Virus record (IMG/VR): IMGVR_UViG_3300017754_002055
Span: 1 to 58,764 of that record
Direction: 5' to 3' (one strand)
Source of the DNA: a virus
Lineage: Duplodnaviria > Caudoviricetes
DNA: 58,764 bases
Shown here: in pieces, positions 2,203-57,256 of the stretch
Layout: every line of letters begins with the position of its first letter
How positions within the stretch are numbered: position 1 is the first letter of the stretch
The notes under the pieces: model-generated
Database searches by the model: none
Seen by the model: the letters and a program-made list of their open reading frames with translations, nothing else
What the model was told of the DNA's origin: nothing
Position numbers and translations under genes: made by a program

Positions 2203-2560
2203 ACGTTTCAGTTCATCACTGAATAGTATGTCCAATATGATGAGAAGCAGGTTGATTACCTACATGGAACTTCTGATAGGGAAACGCTCTATCCGGTTTG
2301 ACTGACCGCGGGAAATATCAAAGAGAAGCAAAGAACAACGTGCTCTCATAGTCTATTTTATTAAACCACACGTGTAGAGAGTTCGTGCTCTCATAATGAT
2401 GAGTCTGTCTAGGACTCAAACATTAAGTTTTTAATTTTTGTAATCAAGAGACGAAGGAGGATAACGTTTCTCCTTCTCTCTACATGATGTGAGTATCATG
2501 GTGTCTTTAAAGACACACCACCAATAGATGCGTTCAGCCTTAAGGATTCGTCGATTGGTT
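2203..2560 (+). ncRNA. Candidate structured non-coding RNA
   Basis: Run of hairpins (TTCAGT/ACTGAA, AGAAG/CTTCT, GATAG/CTATC, CGGT/ACCG, GAGTC/GACTC, GAAGGAG/CTCCTTC, CATGAT/ATCATG, ACCAAT/ATTGGT) in a gap with no credible CDS. Confidence 0.4.
2501..2516. repeat. 16-bp palindrome GTGTCTTTAAAGACAC
   Basis: Direct read; intergenic copy. Confidence 0.95.
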
Positions 2561-2595
2561 AACAAATAGATTAGGGCAAACAAAACAAAATCAAA

Positions 2596-2895
2596 ATGTC
2601 AGAAGACAAAATTTTTGCAGACGGATTCGTATTCAAAAGAAACGAGAACGCACCGGAATTTGTGATTGGTAGAATGTCAATCAAAATTGAGGACGCACTT
2701 GCGTTCATGCGAGAACACGACAAGGGAGGTTGGATAAACCTTAATGTCAAGCAAGCACGTAGTGGAAACTACTATGTGGAGCTCGACAACTACGAGCCAA
2801 AGAAATCAAACTCTAACAATGGCCCAAGCCAACAGGAGACAACCGATGGGCCCGCTAAAAAAGAGCCGGACACAGACGACGACTTGCCGTTCTAG
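2596..2895 (+). CDS. Probable single-stranded DNA-binding protein
   Basis: Small beta-rich protein with acidic tail ending DDDLPF, located in the recombination module. Confidence 0.6.
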   Translation: MSEDKIFADGFVFKRNENAPEFVIGRMSIKIEDALAFMREHDKGGWINLNVKQARSGNYYVELDNYEPKKSNSNNGPSQQETTDGPAKKEPDTDDDLPF

Positions 2896-2922
2896 TCCAA
2901 GCAGAAAAGGTAGCAAAAGAAA

Positions 2923-2945
2923 GGGGGAAACGTCCCCCTTTTTTT
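2923..2945 (+). terminator. Intrinsic terminator
   Basis: GGGGGA-AACG-TCCCCC followed by T7, downstream of the SSB gene. Confidence 0.85.
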
Positions 2946-2956
2946 AGCAAATTAGC

Positions 2957-3095
2957 ATGACAAAAATGCCAAAGCAACTACCCCTATACTCTCTATATAT
3001 ATTCTTCTTCTTCTTCTTTTTTTATTAATTAAAATATAAAGTAAAAATTGACATAAAAGACATATAGATTGAGAGTCAAACAATTAAGTTAAAAA
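2957..3095. other. AT-rich origin-like element, copy A
   Basis: CCCCTATA, (TA)n, (TTC)n, a T-run, then AATTGACATA-AAAGACATA; directly upstream of the primase-helicase; paralogous to 49526-49655. Confidence 0.45.
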
Positions 3096-3121
3096 AATCT
3101 ATCATAAAATCGTCATACAAT

Positions 3122-4198
3122 ATGCAGGTTACGTTATTTAAAAGCATAAGAGAGACCGATACCCCATTCTTCAGAAGCGTACATGCGGTTTTGAATAGGG
3201 TAAAGGACGGTGCGACCAAGGAATTGGTGAAGAAGATTCGCTCAGAGAAGCGCAAGCCCGAGCGCAACGAGATAAAGAAGCAGCTCCCGGCTATTTGCTT
3301 CAGCGGTACATTCAGTAAGCGAGCAGACTCAGCTATCATGGAGCACTCGGGTTTGATATGCCTAGACTTTGATGGGTACACCAAACAGAAGGAGCTGCTA
3401 CAGGACAAGGAGAACTTTACCAAGAGTAAGTATGTGTTCTCTGTATTCATTTCCCCATCGGGCAATGGCCTCAAGGTTTTGGTTAAGATACCGGCAGACC
3501 CCGACAATCACGCAAACTATTTCAATTCTCTTGAGAAGCATTTCAACTCTCCCTATTTCGACAAGACGTCCAAGAATTTGAGCCGAGTTTGTTACGAGTC
3601 TTACGACCCACTCATTTACGTGAACGACAACTCATCAGTATGGGATGTTATTGAGGAGCCGGAGTATACCGAGGTAAGCAAAGTCAGAGACGCTCCTACC
3701 ATACCCATTACAGACGAGAACAAGATTGTGGAAATACTTGTGAAGTGGTGGACAAAGAAATACCCAATGATGGAGGGGCAGAGAAATCAAAATTGCTACA
3801 TACTAGCAATGGCCATGAACGACTTCGGAATCAACAAGAGCTTAGCTGAATATATACTCAAGCAATACTCTTCAGAAGACTTCAGCCTTCAAGAGATTGC
3901 AACGACTATAAACTCAGCGTATTCAAACACGGCAAACTTCGGTACGAAGTATTACGAAGACGAGGAGAGAATCAATCAAATCAAAGCCAAGCTCAGAAGA
4001 GGCGTGCCAAAAAAGGAGGTGCGTTCTCAACTTCAAGACTCAAACTTAGAGCATGATGTGATTGAGTCAGTGCTGAGCAAGGTAGAGGAAGAGAACGCTA
4101 AGCAAACGTTTTGGACCAAGAACGACAAGGGCGCTATCAAGATAGTCCATATCCTATTCAAGCAGTTCTTAGAAGACAATGGCTTCTACAAGTATTGC
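3122..4198 (+). CDS. Primase-helicase, N-terminal part (BT4734/VirE-N-like primase-polymerase domain plus PriCT-like region); frameshifted
   Basis: KKQLPAICFSG, HSGLICLDFD, FISPSGNGLKVLV, RVCYESYDP and EGQRNQ motifs; the reading continues in the -1 frame at 4198. Confidence 0.75.
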
Positions 4199-5539: not shown

Positions 5540-5878
5540 ATGACTGAAGAACAGAAGGTTCATATTGCAATGATTAATTCATTCAATATACTAACAGGAA
5601 AAGTGGACATTGATTTGGTGATGGAGTCAGATGTACCGTACCTGTCATATCATCCATCAGAGTTCATCAATATAAACGCTGCTAAGTTTATCCTGTCCTA
5701 CTTTATGGAGAGGGAAATGTATGAGTATTGCGGAGAGTTTCAGCAGTTCATAGACGACACGTTCAACAAAGACGGAACACTGAAAGAGAAGACGTGCGAG
5801 TGCGAGATGCCCGAGATAAAAGAGTACACTAAAAAAACAACATGTGCAATATGCAATCTAAGACTGAAGATTTGGTAA
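5540..5878 (+). CDS. Hypothetical protein with C-terminal Cys cluster
   Basis: Tightly packed ORF with CECE...CAIC. Confidence 0.6.
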   Translation: MTEEQKVHIAMINSFNILTGKVDIDLVMESDVPYLSYHPSEFININAAKFILSYFMEREMYEYCGEFQQFIDDTFNKDGTLKEKTCECEMPEIKEYTKKTTCAICNLRLKIW

Positions 5879-7341
5879 GCGTATATGACAGGCTTCCCTG
5901 CTATAGCAATGAGATGATGCTTAAGCAGTGCGAGCTAATGCTGAAGACTGTTGAGGCGACCAAGGACGTCAAGGTTAGAAAGGGGCGGACGTTTGTTATA
6001 GAGAAGGTTCCAAGATTTAAGTATCATCCCAACGATGTGGCTATAGCAAGAAGAAGCTACGAGCACTATAAAAAACTTCACGAACAAGACATGGAAAGAA
6101 AAAATAGAGTAGAGTTCAGAGACTATCAAAAGTCAATCATACTTGAGGGCACTAGGAAAATACACGAGCACGGGTTTGTGTATCTAGCAATGGAGGTTCG
6201 CACCGGAAAAACATTGACTAGCTTAGGAATAGCAGAGCAGTTACATGCTGAGACAGTTCTGTTCATTACAAAGAAGAGGGCCATCGGTTCTATTCTAAAA
6301 GACTTTGACCTATTCAAGCCATCGTTCTCAATCTGTGTGATAAACTACGAGAGCCTTCACACTATTGACCACGACATGAATTGGGACTTGGTAATCTGTG
6401 ATGAGGCTCATGGTATGGGTGCGTTTCCAAAGCCAAACAACAGAGCAAAGGCGGTTAGAGACTTGATAAAGAAACATAAGCCAAGGATTATTTTATTGTC
6501 GGGAACGCCGACGCCCGAGTCGTATGCTCAGATGTACCATCAAGTATATAGCATACCCAAGAATCCATTCAACATGTTCAAGAATTTCTACAGGTTCTGT
6601 GACGAGTACGTGAAAGTAAAGCAGAGAAAAATTGGAGGCATGTTTGTCAATGACTACTCAGACGCAAAGGAGTCTATACTTGAGGTAATGCAGCCGTACA
6701 CAATCACCTATACCCAAGCAGCAGCGGGATTTGCAGCGGTAACCACCGAGGAGATTCTTGAGGTAGAGATGAAGGAATCAACCTATAAGTTGATTGACAA
6801 GCTCAAGAGAGACCTTGTGGTTCAAGGAAAGGATGAGACTATACTTGCTGACACGGCTGTCAAGCTTATGATGAAGACCCATCAGATGTACTCGGGGACT
6901 GTTAAGTTTGAGAGTGGAAACTCCATGGTGATTGATACCACCAAGGCTGAGTTCATTAAGGAACAGTTCGACGGGTGCAAGATTGGTATCTTTTATAAGT
7001 TCAAAGAAGAGCTTAACGTTTTGAAGCAGGTGTTTGGAGACATGCTGACTACCGAGCTTAGTGTCTTTGAAGACACCAATAAAAACATAGCCCTTCAAAT
7101 CTTGTCCGGGCGCGAGGGAATATCTTTGAAGCAAGCGGAGTTCTTGGTGTACTACAATATTGACTTCAGCGCCACAAGCTATTGGCAATCAAGAGACCGG
7201 ATGACTACCAAGGACAGGCTTGAGAATAATGTGTATTGGATATTCTCCAAGGGAGGAATCGAGCACGACATATATAAAGCGGTAACAAAAAAGAAAGACT
7301 ATACAGTATCACACTTTAAAAAATTTATCAAAGATGAGTAA
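5842..7341 (+). CDS. SNF2-like superfamily 2 helicase (start uncertain)
   Basis: FRDYQ, MEVRTGKT, DEAH, LSGTP and SYWQSRDR motifs. Confidence 0.85.
   Translation: MCNMQSKTEDLVSVYDRLPCYSNEMMLKQCELMLKTVEATKDVKVRKGRTFVIEKVPRFKYHPNDVAIARRSYEHYKKLHEQDMERKNRVEFRDYQKSIILEGTRKIHEHGFVYLAMEVRTGKTLTSLGIAEQLHAETVLFITKKRAIGSILKDFDLFKPSFSICVINYESLHTIDHDMNWDLVICDEAHGMGAFPKPNNRAKAVRDLIKKHKPRIILLSGTPTPESYAQMYHQVYSIPKNPFNMFKNFYRFCDEYVKVKQRKIGGMFVNDYSDAKESILEVMQPYTITYTQAAAGFAAVTTEEILEVEMKESTYKLIDKLKRDLVVQGKDETILADTAVKLMMKTHQMYSGTVKFESGNSMVIDTTKAEFIKEQFDGCKIGIFYKFKEELNVLKQVFGDMLTTELSVFEDTNKNIALQILSGREGISLKQAEFLVYYNIDFSATSYWQSRDRMTTKDRLENNVYWIFSKGGIEHDIYKAVTKKKDYTVSHFKKFIKDE
7061..7076. repeat. 16-bp palindrome GTGTCTTTGAAGACAC inside the helicase CDS
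   Basis: Direct read; encodes part of SVFEDT. Confidence 0.95.
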
Positions 7342-8696: not shown

Positions 8697-11600
8697 TTAT
8701 TCACCAAATTTCTTTGAACCGAATCCCTTAGTAGTTTTTTTCTTGGTTTCTTTTGGCGCCCCAAATTTCTTTGAGCCAAACGACGGCTTGTCTTTTTTGC
8801 TTGGCACATAGTTGTAAAACTCGTCCTTCATCTTCTGCTCAAGGTCGTCCATTTGCTTCTTAATTTCCTTCTTTGCTTGTTGCTCGTCATATCCCGGAGA
8901 CTTTTCTCCAAACGTTTCCTCGTATAGCTCGGGGTCGTATCGCTTCATCTCTGTCTTGTTCTCATAACCCTGCAGCATTTCCTTCTCAGCTTGCTTTTTA
9001 TCTGCAGCTTTCTTGTCTGCATTCTCAAGGTCTTTGTACATATTGGACATCACAATCTTTCTAATGTCCTTATACAATGGGACCATTCCTAAGTTACCGA
9101 GCACCTCTAATGGGATTCTGATTTGACTCTCTTTCTTGTCTCTCTCGATTGCTTCTTCTTCTTTTTTAGGAGCTTCAAAAACTTTTCGTACCGTTAATTC
9201 AAGTGTTTTTAACGCAGGGCCAAACGAACCTCCCATCTGAGTAATGAAGTCGTTTAAGTCAGTCTTCTGCCCCTTCTTTTCTTGTGGTATAATTGAGTAA
9301 GAGATATAGTCCTTATACGGGTCGTACTCACCCTCCCTAAGCGCTGTCAAAAACTCTTCATTTGCTTCCTCTACGCCATAGTTGACTAACGTTTTAGTTG
9401 CATTACCAAAGTTACGTCCCAATATAAGTCCTGTCATTGTAGATGCCAATGACTGACCGAACTTTTGCATGAAAGTTTTCTCATCATCCTCATCATCGTC
9501 GGCAAACATTGACAGCATAGTGCTTCCTAATACGTTTGTTAGCAACGTATAGACAGTCATACGTGTTGCAACCCCTGCGAGTAAAGCTAGGCCTTGTTTT
9601 CTTGTAATCAATCCATTACCCATTGCGGCATAGACACCCTCACGTGCAGTGGTGTATTCGTATATGGCAAAGCGAGTCATAAAGTTATTGAAGTTATTGA
9701 AGCCTCTAGTCAATGCGCTTTGGCCGGGTTTTATTGTGCCCTTGAGAATCCCCATAAATGGATTATCTGTAGCGCCAACTCTGACGGACATTCTATCGGC
9801 AGCATCAGCGGCTTTTTCAATTTCAGCTTTATATTGATTCATGTAAGCCTCATCATTCTCCGCAACCTTTTTAACATCTATCTCTTTTCCCGTCTGTTCT
9901 TTAAATGAATTAGAGTACACGCCAAACCAATATGGACGCATCACAGCTCTGTCGGGAGTGGAGATTAAGGTATCAGCAGTAAGTTCGACAAAGTTTTTAT
10001 ACTTCTTAAGACTGTTGTTGTATATTGTGTTTACCACATTTAAAACATCAGACTTTGCAGAACCCGACACTATACCTGTTGTCTGACGAAGCACAGAAGA
10101 GTCTATGAATTTTCCGGAAAGCGCTTGGCCCCCATACAATCTATTGGCTTGAACACTCTTTGAGTTTTTCATTATCTCTTGAGCTTCTAATGTGCTGATT
10201 TTTCTATACAACGAAACGCCTTTTGCAAATGAGTCGGGGTCAAAAATTACTGTACCAAAGTTTGATGTAAGCTCAGAAATAAATCTTGGAATACTTGCAA
10301 GAATTGCCCGGTATCCTGTCTTGGAAATAAACTGAACCACCTCATCACCGATTGAATTGGTAATAAAGTTGTTGGTCAAAACATTCTTAACGACTTCATT
10401 AAATGCAGAGTTTATAGCGTTGAAAATTTCGCGTTCCTCCTTTGGTATGCGGCCATTCTTTTCTAACTTGGCTTTTGTTGCAGCCAATGTTTTACGTGCA
10501 GTGCGTATAGCCTTTGTCATAGAATAGTCCAACAATACAAACTTGGCCCCACGCTGAGCAGAAGCAAACAAATCAAAGTTTAATGGCGACACAGTGTTCT
10601 TTCTTTCTTCAAGAGATTTTGCACGTGTCGATGGTCTCATTGAATTGTTGTACTCATCAGCGGTCTGTGTCCCTGTTGCGTTCTCATCTGCACTATACTC
10701 ATGCATCACATAGTGGTGAACGTAATTGTTTAATGGAGTAATCCTGTCTCCACGAATTACAGATGCAGTGTATACTGCTTTTTCACGTAATGATTCATTC
10801 GTTTTTTGAATGATGTCAATAGCTTCTTTCTCTGCTGAGTTGAATGAGTCGTATAGTTTTTTAGCGTCAATCTCAATAATGTCTTTACCATTTTTATCTT
10901 GACCCACAACTACACCAAAGTTTGTTAATATACTTTCAAGCCATCCAATCTCTCTTTCTCCATACTTGCTATTGCCCTCATCAATACGCTTGATGGTAGA
11001 TTGAATAACCTTTGCTACGTTATGAACCTGCTTGCTATCGGGGTTGTTTTGATACTCAAGCTGAAGCATATAAGCCATCATTCTATACGAAGAGAACAGT
11101 GTATTGTTTGCATTATTCTTATAAGACGAAGCAACTTTTTGTCTAGCCTTATCCAACGTCTTATTGATTGTGTTCATCTCAGAGTCAAAAAAGGCTTGCC
11201 CCTTTGCGAGTCCTGCAAATACAGAGTTGAATATGTTTTTTGTTTTGAAGTCTCCAAACAGCTGCTCCATATTGTATAATGGACCACGTTCAACCATTAC
11301 AAAATCAGACGAATTCTTAGAGCGAGTCAAAAACTTTTTAATCCTTGCATACGCCTTCTCAAATTTTAAGGCAACACCTGTTTTGATTGACTCTATTAAT
11401 GGTTCTGATTTTTTGAATGAATCAAGTCTCTCAACAGTAAGCTCAGCATAACTCGGAAGATATCCGTTGTTAATGTTGTCTATTAATTTGATTACGTTCT
11501 CTAACTGAGAAATACTAAGTTGATTTAAAAGCGAAGGCACTAGCAATTCTTTGAGCTCTTTTGCTAAGTTTCTTTCGTCTCTTGTTGGAAGATTCTCGGC

Positions 11601-14600
11601 GTTAATGTCGAGCCCTCTAATTGCCGAAATCAATTTTCTTTTTTCTTCCTCAATCTCCTGCTCAGTCATCTTGGCCTTTTCAACCCTTGGAATAATAAGG
11701 CTCTTGTATTTCTTCATCAGCTTCACCTCAGCCTCTGTAATCTCTCCCTCCTCTAACATCTTAATTAGAGTCTCAGCAAAGTCAATCTTTCCGTCTTCAT
11801 CAATTACCTTGTCCTCGTAGTTATCGAACAGGATAGCCAATTCTTCAACCAACGATTCCTCCTCGTTTACTGCATCAAGTATTTCGTTAACGGTAGAGAC
11901 AACTTTATTTGCCTCTTCCAATTTCAATACTGCAGCGTTCTCTCCAAATGAATCTACTAACGCAAGGTATTTGTCTAATACTGAATCGGGGATTAGATTT
12001 GGATTGATTGAGAATAGCTTGGTCAATAGAGGTCCTGCTGATTCAGCAATACCTATTTTAGTCTTGATATTTACCTTAGCTGTTTTTAATTTCTTGCGAG
12101 CAGTCTCTATCTTTTGGTCGTATTCAGCGTCTTCAAATACATTAATCATGTAGTCAACAAACTTGTCTACAGAATCTTGATTGAATACATTGACTGCCGC
12201 AAATCTTCTGATAATACTTGCTACCTGCTTGGTTTTTATTTTACCCGGCAATACTAATTCTTTTATTTGCTTAGCCAACTCAGCTTCAGCTTTCATAAAA
12301 GCAATCTTTGACTGTCTTGCTCCCCGGGCTAGGTCTCGGATTTGTTTCTTAAGCAACTCCTTCTCTGACATTGTGATTCTTTTAATGTCAGCTATATCCC
12401 CAAGCACTAGGCGACCTAGTCCCATAAACACGTCTCTTTCAACTGATGGCGCAGACTTTTGTCTTTTGCCAAACTCAGTTTCTACATTACGAACCAACTG
12501 CTCACGCTGAGAGTCGTTTGCTATCTCATAAACCTTAGACCTAGTAACATACTTCATGACGTTATCCATGGTCTTTGCTTTGTCTAGTCCACGTTTTATA
12601 GACTTCTCAATAATTCCATTGGCAATATCAAGCATACGTGCGTATCCCGGAATGGTGTCTACGTTCTCTTGAAGATTGCCGGCCCCTAGATTAATTCTAG
12701 AGAACTTAGCCTTGAATGGATTGAAGAATTTGCCGTTTGGGTCTAGGATATATACTCCTCCCGGTCTTCCGTTAGCATCGGGCTTAGCTCTCTTAGCTGA
12801 ATAGCCAAAGACATTGAGCTCTCTGCTCATGGCGAACTCATTTACCTGTGCAGGAGAGAAGCCATTATTATTCATGTTGTACCTCTTGGCAACCTTCTGA
12901 ACTTCTTGAAGCGTTCCTCCTCCCTGTGGAGTTTGACGACTTACTCTTGCTCCTCCTCGCTCAGCCCCGACAGTATCAGATTTAGTTCCTCTACTTCTTC
13001 GTCCGACAGTTTCTCCTTCAACATTATCTGTAGTCCCTTCTTGAAGAGGTCCTCCTGCCCAACTTGGGGTTTTGATTCCTCCTGCATACTCTGTGATTTG
13101 ATTTCTTGATTCATCTAATGTGATTTTTTTGTTTACGTAATTTTCTACTATTTGATTGATAGCCTCAACCTTTTTCTTATCTCTTTTAAAATCATCAGTG
13201 AACAAGCCTCTTACTGCTTCCCAAGTAATACTCTGTACTTGACGAGGCAATAGACCTGTTTCTTCTGCGGCTAAATTATATCCTTCGGCAAATGCATAGT
13301 ACAACCCTTTGATTCCAAGTGGGTCTGAGTTTGATGTACCGGTTCCAAAATTAGCTTCAACTTGTTTAGAGTTTCCCGATAAAGGAAGCAATAACGCAGC
13401 GGCTACCGCATGGGTATCCATTGTCACGTCCTTGTCGGGAGACATTGGGTCGATGATATTATTGTAAAAGTTACGAATTTTGTGCATCTCTCCAAGAGTT
13501 CTTGTGATATTCTCTTGGCTTCCATCAAGATAAATTGCAACTGCTTTACCAATTTCAGTATATGAACCCCAAGCGACTTGAGCATTAGAGCCGTCTTTCT
13601 TTTTAGCTATTCCAATTACCTTACCGTCGGGACTTAAAATGTCGTAATCTTTAGTTGTGTTTACCTCGTTGTATGTTCGGGCGTAATATGGTTTAGCGTA
13701 ATTAGGAGCGTCATTCATCTTCGTTCCTATTAGGCCGGTAAGATTTTGCAAAACTATATCGCTTTTTTTAACGGCACTATCATACTTAGCTATTAGTTTT
13801 TTTAACTTGTTAGCATTAGCCTTTGAGCGGCTCTTCTTGTATGCTGCCTTAGCCTTGTTTACCTTCTTCTGCTTACCTTCCAAGCCGATGTTAATGATTC
13901 CTCTCTGATAGTCAACCATCTCTTGACTCATAACAGGATTATCTTTAAATGCCATCATTACCATTTCGGCAAGACGAACATTTTGATACCAATCTTTTTG
14001 AGGAGATAGTGAAGCTATAATACCTGCAGCTTGTTCGGTTGTGATGCCATACTTTTTGCCAAAGTTTTGGGCCAAGATGTTTGCTCCATCATACCACAGC
14101 GTTGCAATCTCTCTTAGGTCTTGTCTAAAGTTATCTATCAGATACTCTAAGTTATCTGCAATCTGACGAGAAAATATATCGTAAACTTCTTGAGCCTGCT
14201 CAATAGTTTTTATCTCATTGAATGCTTTAACTCCTCTAACGATTGGATACTGAGCAATAAGATTGGCATTGCTGATAAATATCTCCGGAGCATTTTCTTT
14301 TACATAAGCAAGTGAAAGTTCCGGCGCTTCTTCTACAATCTTCCGTTTGTTTCTTGTATAGATAGCTAAGCCTTTCGAGACTCTGCTTCCTGCACGGCTA
14401 AGAGTGCGGACAAGTTTTACATCGATGTCTTTGAGGGAAGATGTTTTAGGAGTAGTCTCTTGAAGAGTAGCTACACCCGCTTTCGGTTTTTGAAAAGAAG
14501 TTCTATTTGGATTAGACGCCTGTTGTTGCTCAACATCTCTAAAGAACATTGATATATCCTGTCCCTTAGACATGCGCTCAGAGATAGTTACCATGAACTC

Positions 14601-17600
14601 CAATACGTCCTCCGGTCTAGCGTCCTCCAAGAACATTGGCTGCCCTGTAATCTTTACTGCTATGCCATTGAACAAAGATTTTATCTCATCAAGGAGTGTC
14701 TTTGCCTTTGGAGTTAGATTGTCAGATGTAATTCCTGCTGCAGTAAGCAGCCCTCCAAGTTGAACAAGCCACTCCTCTGCTTGAACGTTCGATTGCTTAT
14801 ATGTTTCTGATTCTGAAAACTCATCAAGCTGATTTGCAATTTCATTGAATCCATTGTCGATAAGGGATTGTCTTACGCTATCTCTGAACTCATTAAACAA
14901 CGCTTGATTATCACCAAATGCCTTGATTAATATGGCATGCCAAGCCTCGTGCGGAAGAGTGGTAGCGTCAGATACTGAGTCGTTAATCAATATCTCAATA
15001 GGCTTGTTGTTCAAGTCATAGATAATCATACCTCCCTCGCCCCCGAGAATCTGACTTGAAAATGAAGCACCAAATCTCTGAATTGCGTAGTCCTTCATCT
15101 CCTGTAATGACTTAAGATTCTTAGTCTTCAAGTCGGGAAATATAGTAGTTAATGAGCGAACAGTATTGGCAAAAATCTCAGCCTTAGTTTTGCCCATTTT
15201 ATTAGCCTTCGAGCTAATGATTTCATTTTTAAAAGCCTTTGCCGTATCTCCGTAAATCGTTAACTTAAAAAGCTTGCCCCCTTCTTTCTTTCCAATAGGA
15301 AGTCCAAGAATTTTTTTTCTTTTATCACTCTGAACCTCCTCTGTAAACTCACGAAGAAATGGTGGTACTTGGTCTATAGAGTCTACCATAAACTCATAAG
15401 TCTCATCATCATTAAGTCCATCAAAAAAACTATCAGACATATCGACAATATTGCCGTTTACAGTTCCGAAAACTCGGCCCTGTCTTGGAGCTTGTTGTTG
15501 TGCTTGCTCTTGTGCTTGCTCTTGAATCTGACTTAATTCCTCATCAATCTGTGTCTTTAAAGACACTTCAACGGCATCAATAACACTTTGCTGTTGAGGT
15601 GTGCGGTCTTGCTCAGACAACTGAGATGCTGTATCATAAAGCTCAGCAAGCATCTTCTCGTTACCCATCACCGAGGTCTCAGTACCATCCTCTTGCTCGA
15701 AGGTGATTGCGGTGCGCTCTTCTGTCGGGAGTTGCTCTAACGCTGCTGTTACAGTCTCCGGACTAGACAACAAAGACGGTCTAGTGGCAGCAGTTTCTGT
15801 AGCTGCAGCGGACCTAGCCTTTTCATTTAGTGCATTTAATTCGTTTTGAGCGTCTTCAAAAGTAATAAGCTCTTCGCCAATTAATACCGATAAGGGGCCT
15901 ATGCCTTCGGGGGCGGTAGATATAGACCGCTCGACAGCCTGTTCAAGAGCAGCCCTTCTCTCTTCTTCCTCGTCTGTTAATATTTGTATTCTATTTCCCG
16001 GAGCTCCTGTAGCAGGCTCAGCGGCAGGCTCAGCGGCAGGACGATTTGATATTGCATCAAGCTCGTCATTGATGTCATTGATACGACTCTTCTGACGTCT
16101 CACTAGCGCCTCATCCTTGCCTTGTATTTGTTGCTCTAGGTCTTTCTTCTCCTTTAGCAAGTTCATTGCCTCCTTGGCGTCTTGAGTAGATAATCCCTCG
16201 GGCACAGAACGGTATAAGCCAACTGAGTTCCTGTAATTGTTCAGCGACTCCTTGGCTTCTGCCATTGTCATATCTCCGGTAGAAGCCAATTGCTTTAGCC
16301 TCACGACATAAGCTTTCTCTATCTCGCTATCATTAGCTGCTTTTCTGAAGAACTCAAACGCTTTGTCATCCATTGACAAGAATCCTTTCTTCGAGTAAGC
16401 AGCGGACACCGCTGATGGTACGCCCAAAACAAAACCACCGACAGCTTCTTGAGCTCCGGCAGTTGCAACATCTTTTATGTATTCAGCAGACAAGAAGTCG
16501 GGAGTTTGGAACATATCCTTTCCCTTCGCTGTGTTGTACATATCTTTTAAAGCATACTCAGAAACCTGTTGTAGAAATCCGGTCTCACCCTCAGCAAGAG
16601 CTGCTCCGCCCACGGTGATAAGACCACGAGCGACCATGCTGTTGACTTCATTTTTAACAAGCTCTCCAAATGTCTTCGCAGTGGTAGTGGCTCCTGCCTT
16701 TCCCATAGCACCTAGGATGATTCGGTTCATCAGACCTTTGTTGGCTATCACGTTCCTAAGACCTATTGACTCTAGGATTGCAGATGTAATTCCTATTGGA
16801 GCTACAACAGATAGCTTTTCACTCTCAGATATTTTGTCAAACTCAGGGTTATTTGACATCTCCTCGTACACGTGGTCTGTAACTTGAGAATACATTTGAG
16901 CGGTTCTCTGTGCCCATCCTATCGGGGTATTACTACCGACCATTGCCGGTAATGACTCTGCGACACCGAGTATAGCTCCTCCCCAAAATCCTTGTTTTTT
17001 TAGTTCAGCCCATTCTACAGTTGTGCTAGGGTCTCCCAATACAATCTCAGCCCCCGTTCTTATAGACGGGAGAAGATTTTTTTTAAATTCCTTTCTTAGG
17101 TCATCATTTGACTTTGCTCTAACAGAATCCTGTTGTTCGTCAGTCAAGCTATTATACCAATCCCTTACGGTTTGCCCGGCCTTGGGCATTGGTATGGGGT
17201 CGGGAGTCCCTATAGGGAGTACAAGAAATTTGTCACCTCTCTTTTTTGACTCTGCAACAGCCTCATTGTAATCTTCATTTATTCTGTAGGCATTAGATAC
17301 GGCAAGGTTCTTCAATTTTATGGTGTCCTCTGATGGAACTCCTGTCGCCTTTTCGTCGGTAAGAGTTTTCTCAACATCTTCGTCTGCACCTAATGGGCCG
17401 TATTCTGAAATAAAAGCATCAATATATGCGTTCACTTGTCCGGCTGCCATTCTTCCTATACCCGTCATGAACCTATCTAACAACCCTCCTGCCCAACCGC
17501 CTTGCTCCTCTTTCATAGCAGTGTATTGGCCGACAGCATATTCTAAGTTCTTTTTATTTAGCCTAACCTGCTCTTCCCGAGAAAGAAGCCCTTGTGCTTT

Positions 17601-30950: not shown

Positions 30951-30986
30951 AAAAGAAAAAGAGGAGTGTCTTTGAAGACACCCCTC
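30951..30986 (-). terminator. Capsid-gene terminator built on the 16-bp palindrome (30966-30981)
   Basis: Minus strand GAGGG-GTGTCTTCAAAGACAC-TCCTC-TTTTTCTTTT directly after the capsid stop. Confidence 0.8.
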
Positions 30987-47540: not shown

Positions 47541-47810
47541 TTAAAAATAATTATGGACCCATATAGGAGTTTTATCCCCAACATAAGCTCCTTTAACGTT
47601 ATACTCAAAATGCTCAATAGCCTCCTCGTAGTCCATGCCGTCAAGGCATAGCGTCTCAATGCATCTCTTCTCAGAGTACACAAGTCTCATAGACGCCTGC
47701 TCGACACCAATGATTGCATCGTCAAACCCATCAGCCACAAGAAAACTCTCCTCGGGGAATTGCTCAATGATGCATTGAAGCATGGTCTGTTTGTTATTTA
47801 GATTGCTCAT
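47541..47810 (-). CDS. Hypothetical phage protein
   Basis: ADGFDDAIIG..LVYS..EEAIEHFEYN..GAYVG..TP. Confidence 0.7.
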   Translation of the reverse strand: MSNLNNKQTMLQCIIEQFPEESFLVADGFDDAIIGVEQASMRLVYSEKRCIETLCLDGMDYEEAIEHFEYNVKGAYVGDKTPIWVHNYF

Positions 47811-49419
47811 AGACTCTTGCCATTGTTATGATTGCATTCGTACTAAGGATGGTTGTCGCTACACTCACAGCGTTTTGAAGCGCACTGCGTGTAACCTTAA
47901 GTGGGTCAATGACGCCCATCTCCATTAGGTCTCCAAACCCACCGGTCTTGATATTAAGCCCATGACCTGCAGGGTGCTCATTAAGATAGACCTCCTCTGA
48001 AAGACCGACGTTTTGAAGTATCTGACGAAGTGGAGCCTTGAGCGCTTGTCTCATTATGCTGAACGCACACTCCCACTCAGCGGCATATTTCTCCGGTATT
48101 GACGTTGTTATTAGCTCGTCAATGTTAATCTCATAGAGTGCCTTGCCGGCTCCCGGAAGGACGCCCTCCTCAAGCGCTGAACGAACCGCACACACCGCAT
48201 CGTCAACCCTGTCGTATAATTCTTTTTGCTCTAGGTCAGTATTACCACCAACAAATATGACACCGATGCCACCTGTCAGTGATGCGATACGCTCTAACAG
48301 AAAACTCTTCTCAGACTTTTTAGTTGCATTTTCATAAGCGTCACGCAATTGCTGCACACGCTCGTCAGCCTTCTCTTGATTTGAGCGAACCGATGATTTG
48401 ACAATAATGGTTTTGTCTCTTGACACAATAACCTTTGAGGCATGGCCAAGGTCAGCAGAGCTCATAATGCTCAAGTCGTCACCTGTCTTCTCAGAGAAGT
48501 ATGTTGCCCCAACGCTCACAGCAATGTCATGCATAAGCTCATGCTGCTTGTATCCGAAGTTAGGTGGAGGAACCACGCAAACCTTAAGGTTACCCTTCAT
48601 GACGTTTGCAGCAAGTGTGTTGACCACATTCGCATTACATGGCGCAATGATAAGTAACTTCTTTCCCTCAGTGATGATAGGCTTGAGGATGTTCTCAATC
48701 TGAAGGATATTAGAAATCTCCATGTCAGCCACAAGCACCATAGTGTCTTCAAAGACACACTCGTCCTTCTTTTGCTCGTTGGCAAATAGCGGAGATAGAT
48801 ACCCTCTGTCAAACTTAATACCGTGCGTAGTCTCTGCGTAGGTGTCAGAAGTCTGTGAGCGCTCAACAGTGACAATACCATTACGCCCCACCGACTTATA
48901 GACGTCAGAAATAATACGCCCAACCTCACGGTCATTGTTGGATGAGATTGTCGCTACGTCAAATAGCATTGAGTTAGATAACTTCTTGCTGCGTCGTCTT
49001 AGCTTCTCCACTGCCTTGTCGCTTATGTCCACTAGCGCACGTAGCACCTCAGTCTTGTTCATACTCTCGTCCATTAGCTCAACACCGCTGAGCACAAGAG
49101 ACTCTGTGAGCACAATTGCAGTGGTCGTACCATCACCTGCTGCGGTAGCAGTTTGGTCTGCCGCCTCCTTCATCATGCGAACCGCAAGGTTCTCAACCGG
49201 GTCCATAAGGTCAACTGCCTTAGCAACCGTAACCCCGTCCTTTGTGACGGTGATACCGTGAGTGTGATGTGGAGACTCAATAAGCACCGTATTCCCTCCG
49301 GGACCTAGTGTGCTTTTGACAGCAGAGGCCATCTTGACCACGCCATCTACAAGCTTGTTTCTGCCTGTGTCGCCGAAGTATAGGTCCTTCGGGCTGTAAC
49401 CTTGTTGCATATCTACCAT
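47794..49419 (-). CDS. groEL: Chaperonin GroEL
   Basis: TLGP.G, VTKDGVTVAK, AGDGTTTA, FDRGYLSP, RVDDAV.A and GVIDP.KVTR motifs; lacks the GGM tail. Confidence 0.97.
   Translation of the reverse strand: MVDMQQGYSPKDLYFGDTGRNKLVDGVVKMASAVKSTLGPGGNTVLIESPHHTHGITVTKDGVTVAKAVDLMDPVENLAVRMMKEAADQTATAAGDGTTTAIVLTESLVLSGVELMDESMNKTEVLRALVDISDKAVEKLRRRSKKLSNSMLFDVATISSNNDREVGRIISDVYKSVGRNGIVTVERSQTSDTYAETTHGIKFDRGYLSPLFANEQKKDECVFEDTMVLVADMEISNILQIENILKPIITEGKKLLIIAPCNANVVNTLAANVMKGNLKVCVVPPPNFGYKQHELMHDIAVSVGATYFSEKTGDDLSIMSSADLGHASKVIVSRDKTIIVKSSVRSNQEKADERVQQLRDAYENATKKSEKSFLLERIASLTGGIGVIFVGGNTDLEQKELYDRVDDAVCAVRSALEEGVLPGAGKALYEINIDELITTSIPEKYAAEWECAFSIMRQALKAPLRQILQNVGLSEEVYLNEHPAGHGLNIKTGGFGDLMEMGVIDPLKVTRSALQNAVSVATTILSTNAIITMARVYEQSK
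48743..48758. repeat. 16-bp palindrome GTGTCTTCAAAGACAC inside groEL
   Basis: Direct read; encodes part of CVFEDT. Confidence 0.95.
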
Positions 49420-50520: not shown

Positions 50521-50536
50521 GTGTCTTCAAAGACAC
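50521..50536. repeat. 16-bp palindrome GTGTCTTCAAAGACAC
   Basis: Direct read; in the divergent intergenic region. Confidence 0.95.
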
Positions 50537-51442: not shown

Positions 51443-51458
51443 GTGTCTTCAAAGACAC
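51443..51458. repeat. 16-bp palindrome GTGTCTTCAAAGACAC
   Basis: Direct read, 2 nt after the stop of 50799..51440. Confidence 0.95.
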
Positions 51459-52393: not shown

Positions 52394-52423
52394 GCGAGGG
52401 GTGTCTTCAAAGACACTCTTCGC
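52394..52423 (+). repeat. Hairpin containing the 16-bp palindrome (52401-52416)
   Basis: GCGAGGG-GTGTCTTCAAAGACAC-TCTTCGC. Confidence 0.9.
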
Positions 52424-52426
52424 TTC

Positions 52427-52475
52427 CTGTAACAGGGTGAGTGCCCTGTCTGATGAGCTCAAAAGAGCGAAACAG
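52427..52475 (+). ncRNA. Hammerhead ribozyme HHR1 (type III)
   Basis: CUGUA^ ACAGGG-UGAGUG-CCCUGU CUGAUGA GCUC-AAAA-GAGC GAA ACAG; full core; predicted cut after 52431. Confidence 0.93.
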
Positions 52476-52507
52476 TAACCACAAAACATAATCAAAATCA
52501 AAAAGCT

Positions 52508-52702
52508 ATGTTCTACATTGGCAAAACTTACAAGCATGGTCAACACCAAATGACCCGCGAATTTTCAACCGAGTATTCAGCTCTCAATTGGATTGACGCA
52601 AACTCCCGTCACTATGGATTGCACGTTAGTGAAGACGGTTACAGCGCCTCTTCAGAGGATGACCTCGGGTGGTATTTCGAGATAGAGGAGTGCGAATACT
52701 AA
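52508..52702 (+). CDS. Hypothetical early protein
   Basis: AAATC-rich leader directly after HHR1. Confidence 0.65.
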   Translation: MFYIGKTYKHGQHQMTREFSTEYSALNWIDANSRHYGLHVSEDGYSASSEDDLGWYFEIEECEY

Positions 52703-52717: not shown

Positions 52718-52751
52718 GTGTCTTCAAAGACACACTTCGCCTCCTGTAACA
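52718..52751 (+). repeat. 16-bp palindrome (52718-52733) plus truncated ribozyme-cassette remnant
   Basis: GTGTCTTCAAAGACAC-ACTTCGCCTCCTGTAACA matches the HHR1 cassette to just past the cleavage site, then diverges. Confidence 0.8.
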
Positions 52752-54243: not shown

Positions 54244-54302
54244 GAGATAAAAGAGACGCGAGGTGGTAACTCGTTGTTGTGTATGTGTTTTAGCAAAACA
54301 GT

Positions 54303-54326
54303 GGCGGTGTCTTCAAAGACACTGCC
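54303..54326 (+). repeat. Hairpin containing the 16-bp palindrome (54307-54322)
   Basis: GGCG-GTGTCTTCAAAGACAC-TGCC. Confidence 0.9.
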
Positions 54327-54380
54327 TCCTGTCTCAAGGTGTGCACCTTGACTGACGAGCTCCGAAAGGACGAAACAGGA
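54327..54380 (+). ncRNA. Hammerhead ribozyme HHR4 (type III)
   Basis: UCCUGUC^ UCAAGG-UGUGCA-CCUUGA CUGACGA G(C)UCC-GAAA-GGAC GAA ACAGGA; predicted cut after 54333. Confidence 0.9.
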
Positions 54381-54401
54381 AACTAAAAAATTAAAAACAA
54401 C

Positions 54402-54587: not shown

Positions 54588-54590
54588 AAC

Positions 54591-54920
54591 ATGAGGTACG
54601 CAAAACTAATTTCTAACAACGAGGCTACAATTGTCACTGAAGACGGTGGAGTAGCTACTGTACATCACAACGGACAAAACCTAGTCACCACCTACTATCA
54701 ATTGAGGGCCGAGCAGTTCGACGACGACATGTGGGACATGCTCCAAGAGGGTAAGCAATACCTAAAAGATTGGAGGCACAAACAAGAGGTTGACGAGGAG
54801 ACAATTCATGCAGCGCTAGAGTGGCTGTGTCCAACTGAGCGCAATTGGGTCGAGGAGGACTACTACCTGTTTACCACAGAGTTTAATCACCAACAAAATA
54901 AACGGAGGGAAAACCTATGA
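54591..54920 (+). CDS. Hypothetical early protein
   Basis: Operon packing. Confidence 0.6.
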   Translation: MRYAKLISNNEATIVTEDGGVATVHHNGQNLVTTYYQLRAEQFDDDMWDMLQEGKQYLKDWRHKQEVDEETIHAALEWLCPTERNWVEEDYYLFTTEFNHQQNKRRENL

Positions 54921-55201
54921 TGCATGCAACCAAGCTTAAAAAAGCGGGCGGTATACTTGAGATACGCCACAACGACGAGGGCGACGCAGTGTACGTTTTT
55001 ATCAAGAGAAAAAAGGCTAGGGTATTTCCTTCATTAGAGGGGCTAATATCAAGCGTATACTTCGGAGTGGACTCAGAGCATTTCACTTGTCAAGACAGCG
55101 AACTATTCGAGCTGTATGAGGGCGGAGACTATGAGTACAAGAAGCTACGAAACAGAAAAGAAAATCCCGAAAATCCAAACCAATTAAAGTTATGGCAGTA
55201 G
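54917..55201 (+). CDS. Hypothetical early protein
   Basis: ATGA overlap. Confidence 0.6.
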   Translation: MMHATKLKKAGGILEIRHNDEGDAVYVFIKRKKARVFPSLEGLISSVYFGVDSEHFTCQDSELFELYEGGDYEYKKLRNRKENPENPNQLKLWQ

Positions 55202-55434
55202 AACAATTAGCAGCAGAGCTCGAGCTCGAGGGCAAGTATGGGTACTTTGAGTACATCATGGAGAGCGTGTCCAATGGACAGAACAAACAGGCAAGAGAAC
55301 TATACGAGGAGCTCACAATTACTGAGGCGACTGAGTTCTTCGAGTGGGTCGAGGCTAGTTACCATTACGAGGCGGACAGCGACAAGGTTCGCGGCCTTGA
55401 GATGGAGCACCTAAGACTCAAGCTAAGCAGATGA
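55192..55434 (+). CDS. Hypothetical acidic early protein
   Basis: YFEYIMES..NGQ.KQARELY. Confidence 0.6.
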   Translation: MAVEQLAAELELEGKYGYFEYIMESVSNGQNKQARELYEELTITEATEFFEWVEASYHYEADSDKVRGLEMEHLRLKLSR

Positions 55435-55440
55435 ACAAAA

Positions 55441-55466
55441 GCGGAGTGTCTTCAAAGACACTTCGC
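55441..55466 (+). repeat. Hairpin containing the 16-bp palindrome (55446-55461)
   Basis: GCGGA-GTGTCTTCAAAGACAC-TTCGC. Confidence 0.9.
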
Positions 55467-55515
55467 CTGTAGCACGGTGTGCGCCGTGCCTGACGATACC
55501 AAAAGGTTGAAACAG
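55467..55515 (+). ncRNA. Hammerhead ribozyme HHR5 (type III, variant stem II)
   Basis: CUGUA^ GCACGG-UGUGCG-CCGUGC CUGACGA UACC-AAAA-GGUU GAA ACAG; U-U in place of the usual G-C at the base of stem II; predicted cut after 55471. Confidence 0.8.
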
Positions 55516-55536
55516 AAACTAAAAAAACAATTACAC

Positions 55537-55809
55537 ATGGTAAAAAGCACAATGAAATTTATCATTGAAGACAGGGACGGGGAGCTATTCTTTGTCGCGT
55601 CTACAGCGGGCGGCAAGGTATATGAGGCCCATATATCCGACCAAGAGGTTGACATATTCGACTGCATTGAGACGTTCATGAGCGAATACAACAACCTGTT
55701 CAGAGGCAAGAGCAAAGCAAAGACCGACGCATACCACAGAGTGGCGCCGCTGAATAGCACACTGCCGCCTATAGAGAAAATCAAATGGACATCAACAACA
55801 ACAGACTAA
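55537..55809 (+). CDS. Hypothetical early protein
   Basis: ATG start MVKSTMKF after HHR5; the track's GTG start lies inside the ribozyme. Confidence 0.6.
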   Translation: MVKSTMKFIIEDRDGELFFVASTAGGKVYEAHISDQEVDIFDCIETFMSEYNNLFRGKSKAKTDAYHRVAPLNSTLPPIEKIKWTSTTTD

Positions 55810-55810
55810 C

Positions 55811-55963
55811 ATGAGCAACAACATCACACGAGCAAGTCAATTCAACCTTTCAAGGTGCATTTACTTTTGGACAGAACAAACACTCACCAACTGCAAAGAC
55901 AAGGGAGGCTCATTCAACTTAGAGCTATACTTGAGATACTTAGATGCAATACGAAGGTCTTGA
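55811..55963 (+). CDS. Small hypothetical protein (50 aa, not in ORF track)
   Basis: MSNNITRASQF..GGSFNLELY..YLDAI; starts 1 nt after the upstream stop. Confidence 0.5.
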   Translation: MSNNITRASQFNLSRCIYFWTEQTLTNCKDKGGSFNLELYLRYLDAIRRS

Positions 55964-56007
55964 GCTTATTAAGAATCATTATAAGTAAAAAAAAGTTACA
56001 ATAAAAC

Positions 56008-56050
56008 TTGACTTCGTTCAATTCTTGTCGTACCTTTGTCGAAAATTAGT
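56008..56050 (+). promoter_or_regulatory. Early promoter 3
   Basis: TTGACTTCGTTCAATTCT....GTACCTTTGTCGAAAATT; near-identical to 53838-53880. Confidence 0.8.
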
Positions 56051-56106
56051 TTAATTCATCAGAGTTCTGTGTCTATTTAGATGCTGCTCGCAAATCAAAT
56101 CAAATT

Positions 56107-57219
56107 ATGTGCGTCATAATCATCAAACAAAAAGGAATGCAACTTGCCAAAGGAGTGCTAAAAAGTTCAGCCCGTATCAATCCCCATGGACTAGGCGTAG
56201 TGTGGCTTGACACTTTCCAAGTAGAGTATTATGACTCTAAGAAGTACGCGGTGCTGCAGACCGAGCGTCCATTTATAGCACACTTCAGATACGCAACAGT
56301 AGGCGCAATCAACCAAGAGAACACGCACCCATTTACGTGCGGTAAAAATAAAAGTGAGTGGCTCATGATGAACGGGACCATTGCAGGACTAGGCAACAAA
56401 GTCAATTCAGATACCAAGGTATTGGCTGAGAAGCTAGGCGACACGCCTCGTCATACATGGAAAGAACAGCTAGAGAAGTATGAGTGCCGCTTTGTTACAA
56501 TCAACACACGCAACAGGACGTTTCAAGTATACAACCAAGACCTGTGGATACAACGTGACGGTGTGTGGTATTCAAAAGACAACGTGCTAGAAGACCATTT
56601 GGTGGCCGTGTACGGGACACTCAAGAAGGGCAACTCCAACTACTACAACTACCTTACAGGTTCTAAGTACATAGGCAAGGGACATACCAAGGACAAGTAC
56701 CCATTAATAATTGAGGGACTGCCGTACTTAATTGAGAAGAAGGGTGTGGGTTATAACGTGGAGGTGGACGTATTCAAAGTGAGCGACTCAAGACTCAAGG
56801 ACCTAGATAGATTAGAGGGACATCCTAATTGGTACTGTAGAAAGCAAGTGGACATCAAGACAAGCAAGCGCACACTAACATGTTGGGTGTACTTTAACTT
56901 GAGAGAGTTATCCGAGGGCAAGACTTTCCATGAGACCTATACCCAAGAGCAAAGGAAATTTGACAAGTGGTGGGAACAGCCTAAGTTACACACACCAATC
57001 AAGGCGACAAGCGACAAGGCTGTGAAGACAGGGTTCAAGAAGCTAGAGCTGTTCGACGACTACTATGACCATCATGTGAGCGACTCAGACTTTGACGTGA
57101 CAAACGAGAAGCCTATGTGTATCTGTTGTTATCACGACTTAGAGCATGACGGGCACTCTAACTACCATTGCAGTGGGTGTGGTGGGTGGTTCAGTGAGAG
57201 CGAGATTATTGTAGCATAA
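56107..57219 (+). CDS. Class II glutamine amidotransferase fused to gamma-glutamylcyclotransferase (AIG2-like) with a C-terminal Zn ribbon
   Basis: Ntn Cys2 (MC), HFRYAT.G, HPF, NGTI and SDT; then VAVYGTLKKG and LDRLEGHP; CxxC..CxxC tail. Confidence 0.85.
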   Translation: MCVIIIKQKGMQLAKGVLKSSARINPHGLGVVWLDTFQVEYYDSKKYAVLQTERPFIAHFRYATVGAINQENTHPFTCGKNKSEWLMMNGTIAGLGNKVNSDTKVLAEKLGDTPRHTWKEQLEKYECRFVTINTRNRTFQVYNQDLWIQRDGVWYSKDNVLEDHLVAVYGTLKKGNSNYYNYLTGSKYIGKGHTKDKYPLIIEGLPYLIEKKGVGYNVEVDVFKVSDSRLKDLDRLEGHPNWYCRKQVDIKTSKRTLTCWVYFNLRELSEGKTFHETYTQEQRKFDKWWEQPKLHTPIKATSDKAVKTGFKKLELFDDYYDHHVSDSDFDVTNEKPMCICCYHDLEHDGHSNYHCSGCGGWFSESEIIVA

Positions 57220-57232
57220 TCAACCTTTAAGT

Positions 57233-57256
57233 GGCGGTGTCTTCAAAGACACTGCC
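57233..57256 (+). repeat. Hairpin containing the 16-bp palindrome (57237-57252)
   Basis: GGCG-GTGTCTTCAAAGACAC-TGCC; identical to the 54303 copy. Confidence 0.9.

Follow-up and report, generated by a model that had tools for sequence, protein, structure and literature searches.

The palindrome GTGTCTTYRAAGACAC, of 16 bp, is present in exactly 13 exact copies in the genome of IMG/VR virus record IMGVR_UViG_3300017754_002055, a tailed virus of the Caudoviricetes. The sequence analysed, called the window here, is the whole record of 58,764 bp, which has terminal repeats according to its IMG/VR class. The plus strand carries the genes from 50.8 kb through the record end to 8.7 kb, first the small early genes and then those for replication, which encode Sak, a PDDEXK nuclease, a primase and a ResIII/SNF2 helicase, and the minus strand carries the structural, lysis and GroEL genes from 8.7 to 49.4 kb. 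The large terminase is 77% identical to that of the uncultured podophage in GenBank MW202828.1, and ~45% and ~38% identical, respectively, to those of Flavobacterium Elemovirus phages and of Cellulophaga phages such as phi38:1 (87 records). The copies of the palindrome are listed in Table 1, together with early1, the first early gene, whose product is the proposed reader of these sites.

The palindrome is absent from all of 100 dinucleotide-preserving shuffles of the window, and a scan that leaves the centre free and tolerates as many as two mismatches recovers the same 13 sites and no others, against an expectation of 0.19. The number, positions and centres of the copies had been given in the original prediction, made from the sequence alone, and all are borne out. 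The centre is CA in eight copies (48743 to 57237), TG in three (7061, 30966 and 38069) and TA in two (2501 and 15551), CA being the reverse complement of TG. The four intragenic copies had been read correctly, and as stated they use all three codon phases; the helicase and GroEL copies share one phase. In the terminase gene, a TG or TA centre would create a stop codon. The early cluster of seven copies is also confirmed, within 6.7 kb at 50521-57252. A genome-wide distribution of the kind seen for parS or matS had been suggested as well and is not supported, the copies being concentrated at early-gene junctions rather than evenly spread.

It had been allowed that the motif might be a library adapter or an assembly artefact. 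One contig of sequencing run X1, possibly the source of this DNA, covers 50200-58700 with zero differences, and a ~95% identical relative in X4, which belongs to another study, covers 53594-58699. Given these and the presence of the same 16-mer in at least 162 IMG/VR stretches in an exact scan, the palindrome is not such an artefact. Two further explanations were dropped: avoidance of a restriction site, as the motif is over-represented rather than avoided, and mimicry of CRISPR repeats, as the spacing is not array-like.

Table 1. The palindrome copies, early1 and the hammerhead elements of the 58,764 bp window.
Feature	Position	Strand	Context
early1, first early gene, 213 aa	50799..51440	+	Proposed dimeric helix-turn-helix protein, candidate palindrome binder
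Palindrome, TA centre	2501..2516		Intergenic, in plus strand replication-gene operon, 79 nt 5' of ORF 2596..2895; no flank pairing
Palindrome	7061..7076		Within ResIII/SNF2 helicase ORF 5842..7341, reads SVFEDT
Palindrome	15551..15566		Within 3292 aa virion-type ORF 8697..18575, reads VSLKT
Palindrome	30966..30981	-	Tip of intrinsic-terminator hairpin after structural gene 31000..32430
Palindrome	38069..38084		Within large terminase gene 36044..38293, reads CLQRH
Palindrome	48743..48758		Within GroEL 47794..49419, reads CVFEDT
Palindrome	50521..50536		Divergent control region, 278 nt 5' of early1 ATG, upstream of -7-like box 50731
Palindrome	51443..51458		2 nt past early1 stop, 17 nt before ATG of next ORF
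Palindrome	52718..52733		Followed by remnant of hammerhead 5' flank ACTTCGCCTCCTGTAACA, no ribozyme core
Cassette	52394..52478	+	Extended hairpin on palindrome 52401-52416 and type III hammerhead 52424-52478; predicted cut after A52431; 37.5 bits, E 1.6e-4
Cassette	54303..54381	+	Extended hairpin on palindrome 54307-54322 and type III hammerhead 54326-54381; predicted cut after C54333; 35.1 bits, E 7.8e-4
Cassette	55441..55518	+	Extended hairpin on palindrome 55446-55461 and type III hammerhead ~55466-55516, core CUGACGA at 55490; predicted cut after 55471
Cassette	57233..57310	+	Extended hairpin on palindrome 57237-57252 and type III hammerhead ~57256-57309, core CUGAAGA at 57281; predicted cut after 57262
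Type I hammerhead motifs	52916-52965, 53153-53202	+	Intergenic, GGTTAA-CUGAYGAG...CGAAAC...GUC-UUAACC, no palindrome before; first has Rfam E 0.054

Five IMG/VR records, four of them 99-100% complete and one 68% complete, contain 13 to 21 copies each at up to one mismatch. The sites recur in the same slots in related phages: in an N-terminal codon block of the terminase, in a C-terminal block of the helicase, in a block of GroEL, at the hairpin tip downstream of the capsid-module gene and, most prominently, between the early genes. In the helicase slot the site is exact in relatives G001-G003 and G005 and is displaced by 3 nt in G004; the relatives' copies in the gene for the 3292 aa protein are at varying places. 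The terminase slot is exact in all seven covered early1-positive genomes of this motif class and has 6 mismatches in the one covered early1-negative locus. GroEL generally reads ECVFEDV in this block, as do the relatives that lack the site, and site-bearing genomes read ECVFEDT or ECVLEDT; a residue has therefore been changed to complete the palindrome. The earlier proposal that selection acts on the nucleic acid rather than on the protein is supported. Of 106 sites in seven genomes, 27 are intragenic and 79 intergenic; the latter comprise 62 plain sites, 8 that precede T runs and 9 that precede hammerheads.

Related phages also carry other palindromes of the same geometry. In MW202828 the variant GTGTCGTTAACGACAC has 14 copies, of which 12 are within 43.7-51.8 kb; other relatives have GTGCACYCGAGTGCAC, GTCTGTTYRAACAGAC or, in 8 copies, GAGAGTTYRAACTCTC. 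The L321-type palindrome is GAGAGTTCAAACTCTC, and in some relatives the arms of GTGTCT-NNNN-AGACAC enclose an unconstrained centre. No palindrome family of this kind is present in the cultured relatives elemoA and phi38:1. A literature search of main texts found none of four 16-mers and no paper on the motif.

The presence of the motif follows that of early1. Of 51 loci anchored on GroEL, 29 cover the early1 slot, and 10 of these encode early1, eight detected by tblastn and two (L233 and L208) by hidden Markov model (HMM) only. All 10 have a repeated palindrome of this geometry. Among the 19 loci without early1, 17 have no copies, and L198 and L207 have one each. The single copy in L198 is an exact palindrome in the early region (position 2118), and is possibly a relic of a lost system. 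Another relative, L212, has an AT-rich TTTACA..TGTAAA repeat and no early1 homologue. Of the fully covered genes, early1 alone is found in all 10 well-covered motif genomes and in none of the 10 motif-less ones; ORF 49..327 is also absent from all 10 motif-less genomes, but sits at the edge of the covered region. An HMM of 13 early1 sequences matched only genomes that possess a palindrome family, including those with variant motifs (MW202828, E 1.6e-31; G001, 3.6e-27; L233, 1.1e-20; L208, 2.7e-6). In a GroEL tree of 37 rows, early1 presence requires six changes, at least five of them forced by well-supported branches, and the motif follows early1 in every row.

The original prediction had named the helix-turn-helix-like proteins at 398, 46863 and 50799, or a host factor, as candidate binders. 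Only the protein at 50799, early1, is singled out by this comparison. All 10 motif-bearing and all 10 motif-less relatives encode the protein at 46863, and the DnaA-type helix-turn-helix protein at 398 is encoded by 9 of 10 and at least 4 of 10, respectively. That the reader is a protein of a Bacteroidota host rather than of the phage is most improbable. In favour of it, contig WTJX01000555.1 (56,458 bp; L349-L352 and L399), binned in a Cytophagales metagenome-assembled genome, has at least five exact copies. This contig is probably a phage of the present clade, and is a weak hint as to the host group. Among the 124 genome stretches listed, no host chromosome has many copies, all being single-copy except for this one phage-like contig, and the enrichment in Bacteroidota chromosomes that had been envisaged is therefore not seen there. 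In addition, close relatives have or lack the motif in step with early1, and the motif variants differ between closely related phages.

The association was also sought in the forward direction, starting from the protein. A profile of 11 early1 sequences identified 76 IMG/VR loci, a set that includes the profile's own source contigs and several loci that share contigs with the earlier ones; the loci are fragments of up to 21.6 kb with crude, script-made ORF calls. In 72 of the 76 the commonest palindrome is present in at least two copies, with the arms GTGTCT in 70, GTGTCC in one and GAGAGT in one, and the remaining four loci have 2 to 4 copies each at one arm mismatch. Scans with three diverged early1 proteins, used singly, recovered no contigs beyond those of the proteins themselves. 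In the 70 GTGTCT loci, the best-segment identity to the early1 of the window is 33-60%, and the segment after a conserved FG, predicted to be the recognition helix, is nearly unchanged as QKS[YF][FL]YK. The genomes with the variant motifs GTGTCGTTAACGACAC, GTGCACYCGAGTGCAC, GTCTGTTYRAACAGAC and GAGAGTTYRAACTCTC each have a different helix sequence.

The sites have preferred places around early1 itself. There are 43 directly after the early1 stop codon across the 76 loci. Of 66 distinct loci, 54 have a site up to 600 nt upstream of the early1 start, in 51 of these at -205 to -300. The consensus TAnnTTTG is that of the -7-like promoter box, a host-type element, and such a box is present between the upstream site and the early1 ATG in 34 of the 54.

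Neither Pfam nor PHROGs gave a family for early1 or its relatives. Pfam had none for 16 aligned members of the family (E up to 10) or for 48 remote members (E up to 0.01), and did not detect a ParB-type N-terminal (CTPase) domain in early1 or in any of these. The family comprises 365 representative clusters at 50% identity (E up to 0.001). In the model of early1 (pLDDT 83.7), residues 76-84 and 88-98 form the helix-turn-helix of a helical domain; a disordered acidic linker (145-162) and a small C-terminal beta-beta-beta-alpha domain follow. A Foldseek search of the Protein Data Bank (PDB) with this model returned nothing at E <= 0.001, and the early1 HMM had one match among PDB sequences, at E 1.3. 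Atlas leads were DUF3102 (0.91) and ParB (TM 0.31); the DUF3102 label was rejected, as Pfam did not reproduce it. The homodimer model scores 0.74 against 0.00 for the best control, and the runs agree in at least 69% of contacts with pLDDT of at least 80. Among solved structures, 20 of 30 homodimers and 1 of 23 monomers reach this mark, a calibration that holds roughly, as a custom alignment was used. The modelling supports the formation of an early1 homodimer.

It is probable, from these associations, that the 16-mer is a double-stranded DNA operator of the phage-encoded, homodimeric helix-turn-helix protein early1, and controls the early operon. What the computations here establish is the motif itself, how well it is conserved, that it occurs and varies together with early1, and a predicted fold and dimer. 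The original prediction of a site for a dimeric DNA-binding protein remains the best reading, and early1, with its predicted dimer, would be that protein. Early1 would be transcribed first, from a host-type promoter with its box at 50731, and each subunit would read one half-site, GTGTCYTY. The dimer would then occupy the site upstream of its own promoter and the site right after its own gene, as well as most of the early-gene junction sites and a few tolerated sites in late genes. As the copies are concentrated in the early operon, in MW202828 as in the window, control of early transcription is the most economical role, and the likeliest mode would be a roadblock or silencing with autoregulation of the operon. 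The sparse late-gene sites may extend this control or serve another purpose. DNA entry, localisation, protection and packaging were the possible roles named in the original prediction.

The sites must also be considered as RNA, since four of the copies are the tips of long RNA hairpins that abut hammerhead ribozymes, a feature that had been overlooked in the first reading. Six hammerhead motifs are present in the early region, four of type III and two of type I, all on the plus strand. The type III elements (Rfam RF00008) have the CUGANGA...GAAA core and the NUH triplet in the correct order, with core columns conserved in 56 cassettes. Across these 56 sequences, both sides have changed in 12-33 for each pair of stem I (0 for the outermost), 4-19 for stem II and 0-27 for stem III, and the three hammerhead stems are therefore supported by compensatory changes. 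The Rfam gathering threshold of 48.5 bits is not reached by the two scored in Table 1, and the other two type III elements are absent from the cmscan output. The extended cassette hairpins have folding energies of about -21 kcal/mol. In L321, the ribozymes come after that locus's own GAGAGT palindrome. At both type I hammerheads, X1 and X2 contigs have many loose ends from other contigs, as for a repeated element. In some relatives a tRNA-like minihelix, with an acceptor-like stem and a GGTTCGAnTCC T-arm, stands after the palindrome (G004 57126-57400 and 58248-58330; G005 55128-55200; G002 20192-20260). These stand in place of the hammerheads of the window, which suggests that RNA-cleavage modules, of RNase P type and of ribozyme type, are interchangeable.

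The copy at 30966 is likewise at the tip of an RNA hairpin. It had been predicted to form the stem of the capsid terminator, and this holds: the hairpin (-21.1 kcal/mol, z -6.2) is followed by UCUUUUUC, its flanks pair in the sense strand only, and it combines the stable GC-rich hairpin, U run and gene end of an intrinsic terminator in a slot conserved in relatives. In elemoA and phi38:1 the capsid-module terminator slot has a generic GGGG..CCCC hairpin; in the motif-bearing phages the 16-mer is at its tip.

An alternative, possible but doubtful, is that the functional form is the RNA hairpin GUGUCUU-YR-AAGACAC, read by early1 or another factor, and that it controls hammerhead cleavage, the stability of 3' ends or the translation of the next gene. 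The flank pairing points this way. In the seven genomes, the 9 sites before hammerheads have a mean extension of 5.3 bp in the sense strand (with 16 G.U pairs) and 0.4 bp in the antisense, and the 8 sites before T runs have 5.1 bp (6 G.U) and 1.75 bp, respectively, with no G.U in either antisense set; in the cassettes of the window the flanks pair in the sense strand only. The hairpin joins hammerhead stem III without a spacer in the minimum-energy fold of two of the four cassettes (54300-54383 and 57230-57312). Intergenic sites are a median of 35 nt upstream of the next start codon, a TTGA centre is nearly excluded before hammerheads (2 of 92), and the core precedes most hammerheads. Against this, the core alone is weak at -5.6 kcal/mol, and the 89 plain intergenic and intragenic sites of the 106 have mean flank extensions of only ~1.1 and 0.3 bp, respectively. 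In the early1-positive loci 38 of the 131 hammerhead-like motifs are without the core, by eye mostly type III after other GC-rich hairpins with several of type I, and an RNA role therefore does not need the palindrome sequence. The conserved site ahead of early1 is upstream of the early promoter box and so is probably not transcribed, and early1 itself models with a classical helix-turn-helix.

The variation among the sites bears on the same question. A YR centre is found in 311 of 331 early-operon sites, and exact arms in 285 of 334. The common single arm changes are T>C at position 6 (19 cases) and A>G at position 11 (17 cases); these being equal, C.A mismatches in the sense RNA are as common as U.G. 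In the 56 aligned cassettes the ribozyme stems covary freely, and the core pairs 9-13/20-24 are invariant in all 56. The conserved cores of the half-sites would lie ~10 bp apart, or one turn of B-DNA. This pattern fits half-sites GTGTCYTY in duplex DNA rather than an RNA stem. As a transcribed palindrome is also an RNA hairpin, sites could be placed or kept at the tips of hairpins that have RNA purposes, which would be the capsid-module terminator and the long hairpin before each type III hammerhead. The hairpin-tip copies are accordingly read here as binding sites lodged where the palindrome is tolerated.

Several observations weigh against a DNA operator of early1. The sense-strand centre is biased, with 197 TCAA to 63 TTGA overall and 63 to 2 before hammerheads, which a symmetric dimer does not predict. 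The core precedes 93 of the 131 hammerhead-like motifs in early1-positive loci, and no hairpin-hammerhead cassette was seen in 18 early1-negative loci, which had just a few type I motifs; together these make a functional RNA link possible. The same RNA stem forms from either strand, thus orientation independence alone does not exclude recognition of RNA. The co-variation of helix and motif comes from only four variant classes, in proteins that have diverged throughout, and the GroEL tree may differ from the history of the genomes. In structural comparison by VIA-align the matches are weak and within the noise range for helical models: KorB with its operator (1r71_A) was second (Z 5.5, rmsd 4.4, 93 aligned), Spo0J (1vz0_A) third (Z 5.2), and 8qa8_A had Z 4.3. 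Finally, physical binding by early1 and its regulatory effect are themselves only inferred, from sequence comparison and models.

These points leave room for a combination of the two, in which early1 binds the palindrome as DNA and also, or instead, as an RNA hairpin stacked on stem III of the type III hammerhead. Such a combination is rather unlikely. If true, the palindrome would be a dual DNA and RNA element, through which ribozyme cleavage and the fate of each early mRNA would be under protein control gene by gene. It would be a natural protein-responsive hammerhead system, with the first early gene product as its master switch.

The large virion-type gene raises the question of transcription by a phage enzyme. 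Phage N4 carries a virion RNA polymerase, and the palindrome could be the hairpin-type promoter or terminator of such an enzyme, with the 3292 aa protein in the N4-like part. The existence of this giant ORF, the sites before most early genes and the hairpin-like geometry would all agree with this. It is nevertheless very unlikely, as sequence searches found no polymerase signature in the protein, with a match in Pfam to DUF7178 only, no sequence match in the PDB and no D[FYVIL]DxD motif; its PHROG matches are without known function. The elemoA and phi38:1 phages have very large structural proteins in the matching place (3694 and 1691 aa, respectively) and no palindrome family, and the motif tracks early1 rather than the giant gene. 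Upstream of early1 and of two more early blocks there are host-type -7 boxes, and the sites are symmetric and also occur in late genes in both orientations. A promoter for a crAss-type virion polymerase was rejected, as a preprint on phi14:2 reports no common motif upstream of early transcripts. A second large ORF on the minus strand, of 1577 aa (23470-28203), matches a structural PHROG strongly and the crAss muzzle protein only below threshold (25.6 bits, cut-off 27).

Promoter and stem-loop repeats are recombination substrates in T4-type phages. Here too the copies might mark the edges of gene cassettes that shuffle, or be a small mobile palindrome, and have no reader acting in trans. Whole-gene insertions and deletions do occur beside the repeats. 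Contigs of X3 and X4 skip the small gene 52508..52702, with joints from 52479/52481 to 52768, and a minor X1 contig skips the GATase/GGACT gene, with a joint from 56055 to 57237 that ends exactly at a palindrome, which hints at gain or loss of cassettes at the repeats. There is also a decayed palindrome, GTGTCTATTTAGATGC (56069-56084, 5 mismatches), between a promoter-like block and the GATase/GGACT gene, in a slot where G002, G003 and G005 have an intact site. The X1 joint, however, comes from a contig of 272 nt with 22 nt on one side. Shuffling leaves unexplained why fixed codons in the terminase, helicase and GroEL genes keep the site exactly, why the centre is restricted to YR, and why the motif changes symmetrically and in concert with early1, and is quite unlikely as an explanation.

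Other features of the region were noted. Two near-identical promoter-like blocks, at 53835-53895 and 56003-56060, have the form TTGACTTCGTTCAATTCT..GT..CTTTGTCGAAAATT with a TAnnTTTG box, and stand ahead of the genes at 53932 and 56107; with the box at 50731, these suggest three host-type early promoters. A GC-rich repeat tract at 50240-50600, unusual in a genome of 41.7% GC, has (CGC)n runs and CCTGTCA/CCTGTTA repeats and ends at palindrome 50521, after which come three to four TTCGTCTA repeats. In relatives, too, G/C tracts adjoin this palindrome, and the tract of the window may be an origin or genome-end region. The plus strand at 2105-2201 matches the Rfam tRNA model at 37.2 bits, which exceeds the gathering score, but a 40 nt insertion replaces the anticodon and variable region. 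ARAGORN found no tRNA at this position, and the element may be a tRNA with a long arm or an intron, or else be tRNA-like.

It is most likely, from the comparison of related sequences, that early1 and the palindrome are a matched protein-and-site pair that change together in related viruses. A concrete and testable function, with a defined 16 bp target, can thus be proposed for the early1 family, and at least five natural specificity pairs are available for decoding how early1 may read DNA. The results describe a regulatory grammar for a widespread clade of ~60 kb aquatic Bacteroidota phages, in which putative protein-binding sites are worked into terminators, into ribozyme modules and into essential genes at codons that tolerate them. 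Their presence in such places is direct evidence of selection for the number of sites. The hairpin-hammerhead cassettes are, in addition, a well-populated and covarying set of phage hammerheads that is missed at the Rfam threshold.

There are several known systems to which these sites may be compared, and KorB with its palindromic operators and the mycobacteriophage stoperators are the nearest working analogues. The 16 bp parS and 14 bp NBS palindromes are bound by helix-turn-helix dimers, ParB and Noc respectively, in several copies per replicon, and may be intragenic. The present sites are similar in palindrome length, copy number and intragenic occurrence, and the Spo0J match is weak. They differ in sequence and in being concentrated in the early operon and not around an origin, and no ParB N-terminal domain, ParA or SMC link is seen.

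The plasmid RK2 has 12 O_B sites, and KorB, the ParB-family regulator which binds them, has a DNA-binding domain, a flexible linker and a C-terminal dimer domain. KorB acts on promoters from operator sites near and far on RK2 (PMC11790492). As in that system, a helix-turn-helix protein, here with a predicted dimer, would act with a short multi-copy palindrome on one replicon, and the early1 model also has a DNA-binding domain, a linker and a C-terminal domain, although the structural match is weak. Unlike KorB, early1 has no detectable ParB N-terminal CTPase domain or Pfam family, and it is not a demonstrable member of the ParB family. The site sequence also differs, the replicon is apparently a lytic podophage, and the sites are at gene junctions and in RNA hairpin and ribozyme modules.

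Clustered hammerheads between the genes of phage and prophage operons have been proposed to split one long transcript into mRNAs the length of a gene (Perreault et al. 2011, PMC3088659). The six hammerheads of the window are likewise placed between genes of one phage operon, but those of type III follow a long hairpin tipped by an invariant 16-mer that is tied to a phage protein. No published description of hammerheads paired with an invariant, protein-linked palindrome was found in main texts.

The stoperators of cluster A mycobacteriophages, read by proteins of the L5 gp71 type, are one short site repeated dozens of times across a phage genome, mostly in short intergenic gaps, at which one phage protein stops elongation, and the specificities of site and repressor evolve together (PMC9283540 and PMC6550527). 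They are asymmetric, read by a monomer, orientation-dependent and serve prophage immunity (PMC9283540). No integrase was noticed among the 23 large ORFs of the window in a general family scan. As with the stoperators described there, many copies of one site are mostly intergenic; in contrast to them, the site is a palindrome found with both centre orientations, its candidate reader is modelled as a dimer, and that reader is encoded by the first early gene.

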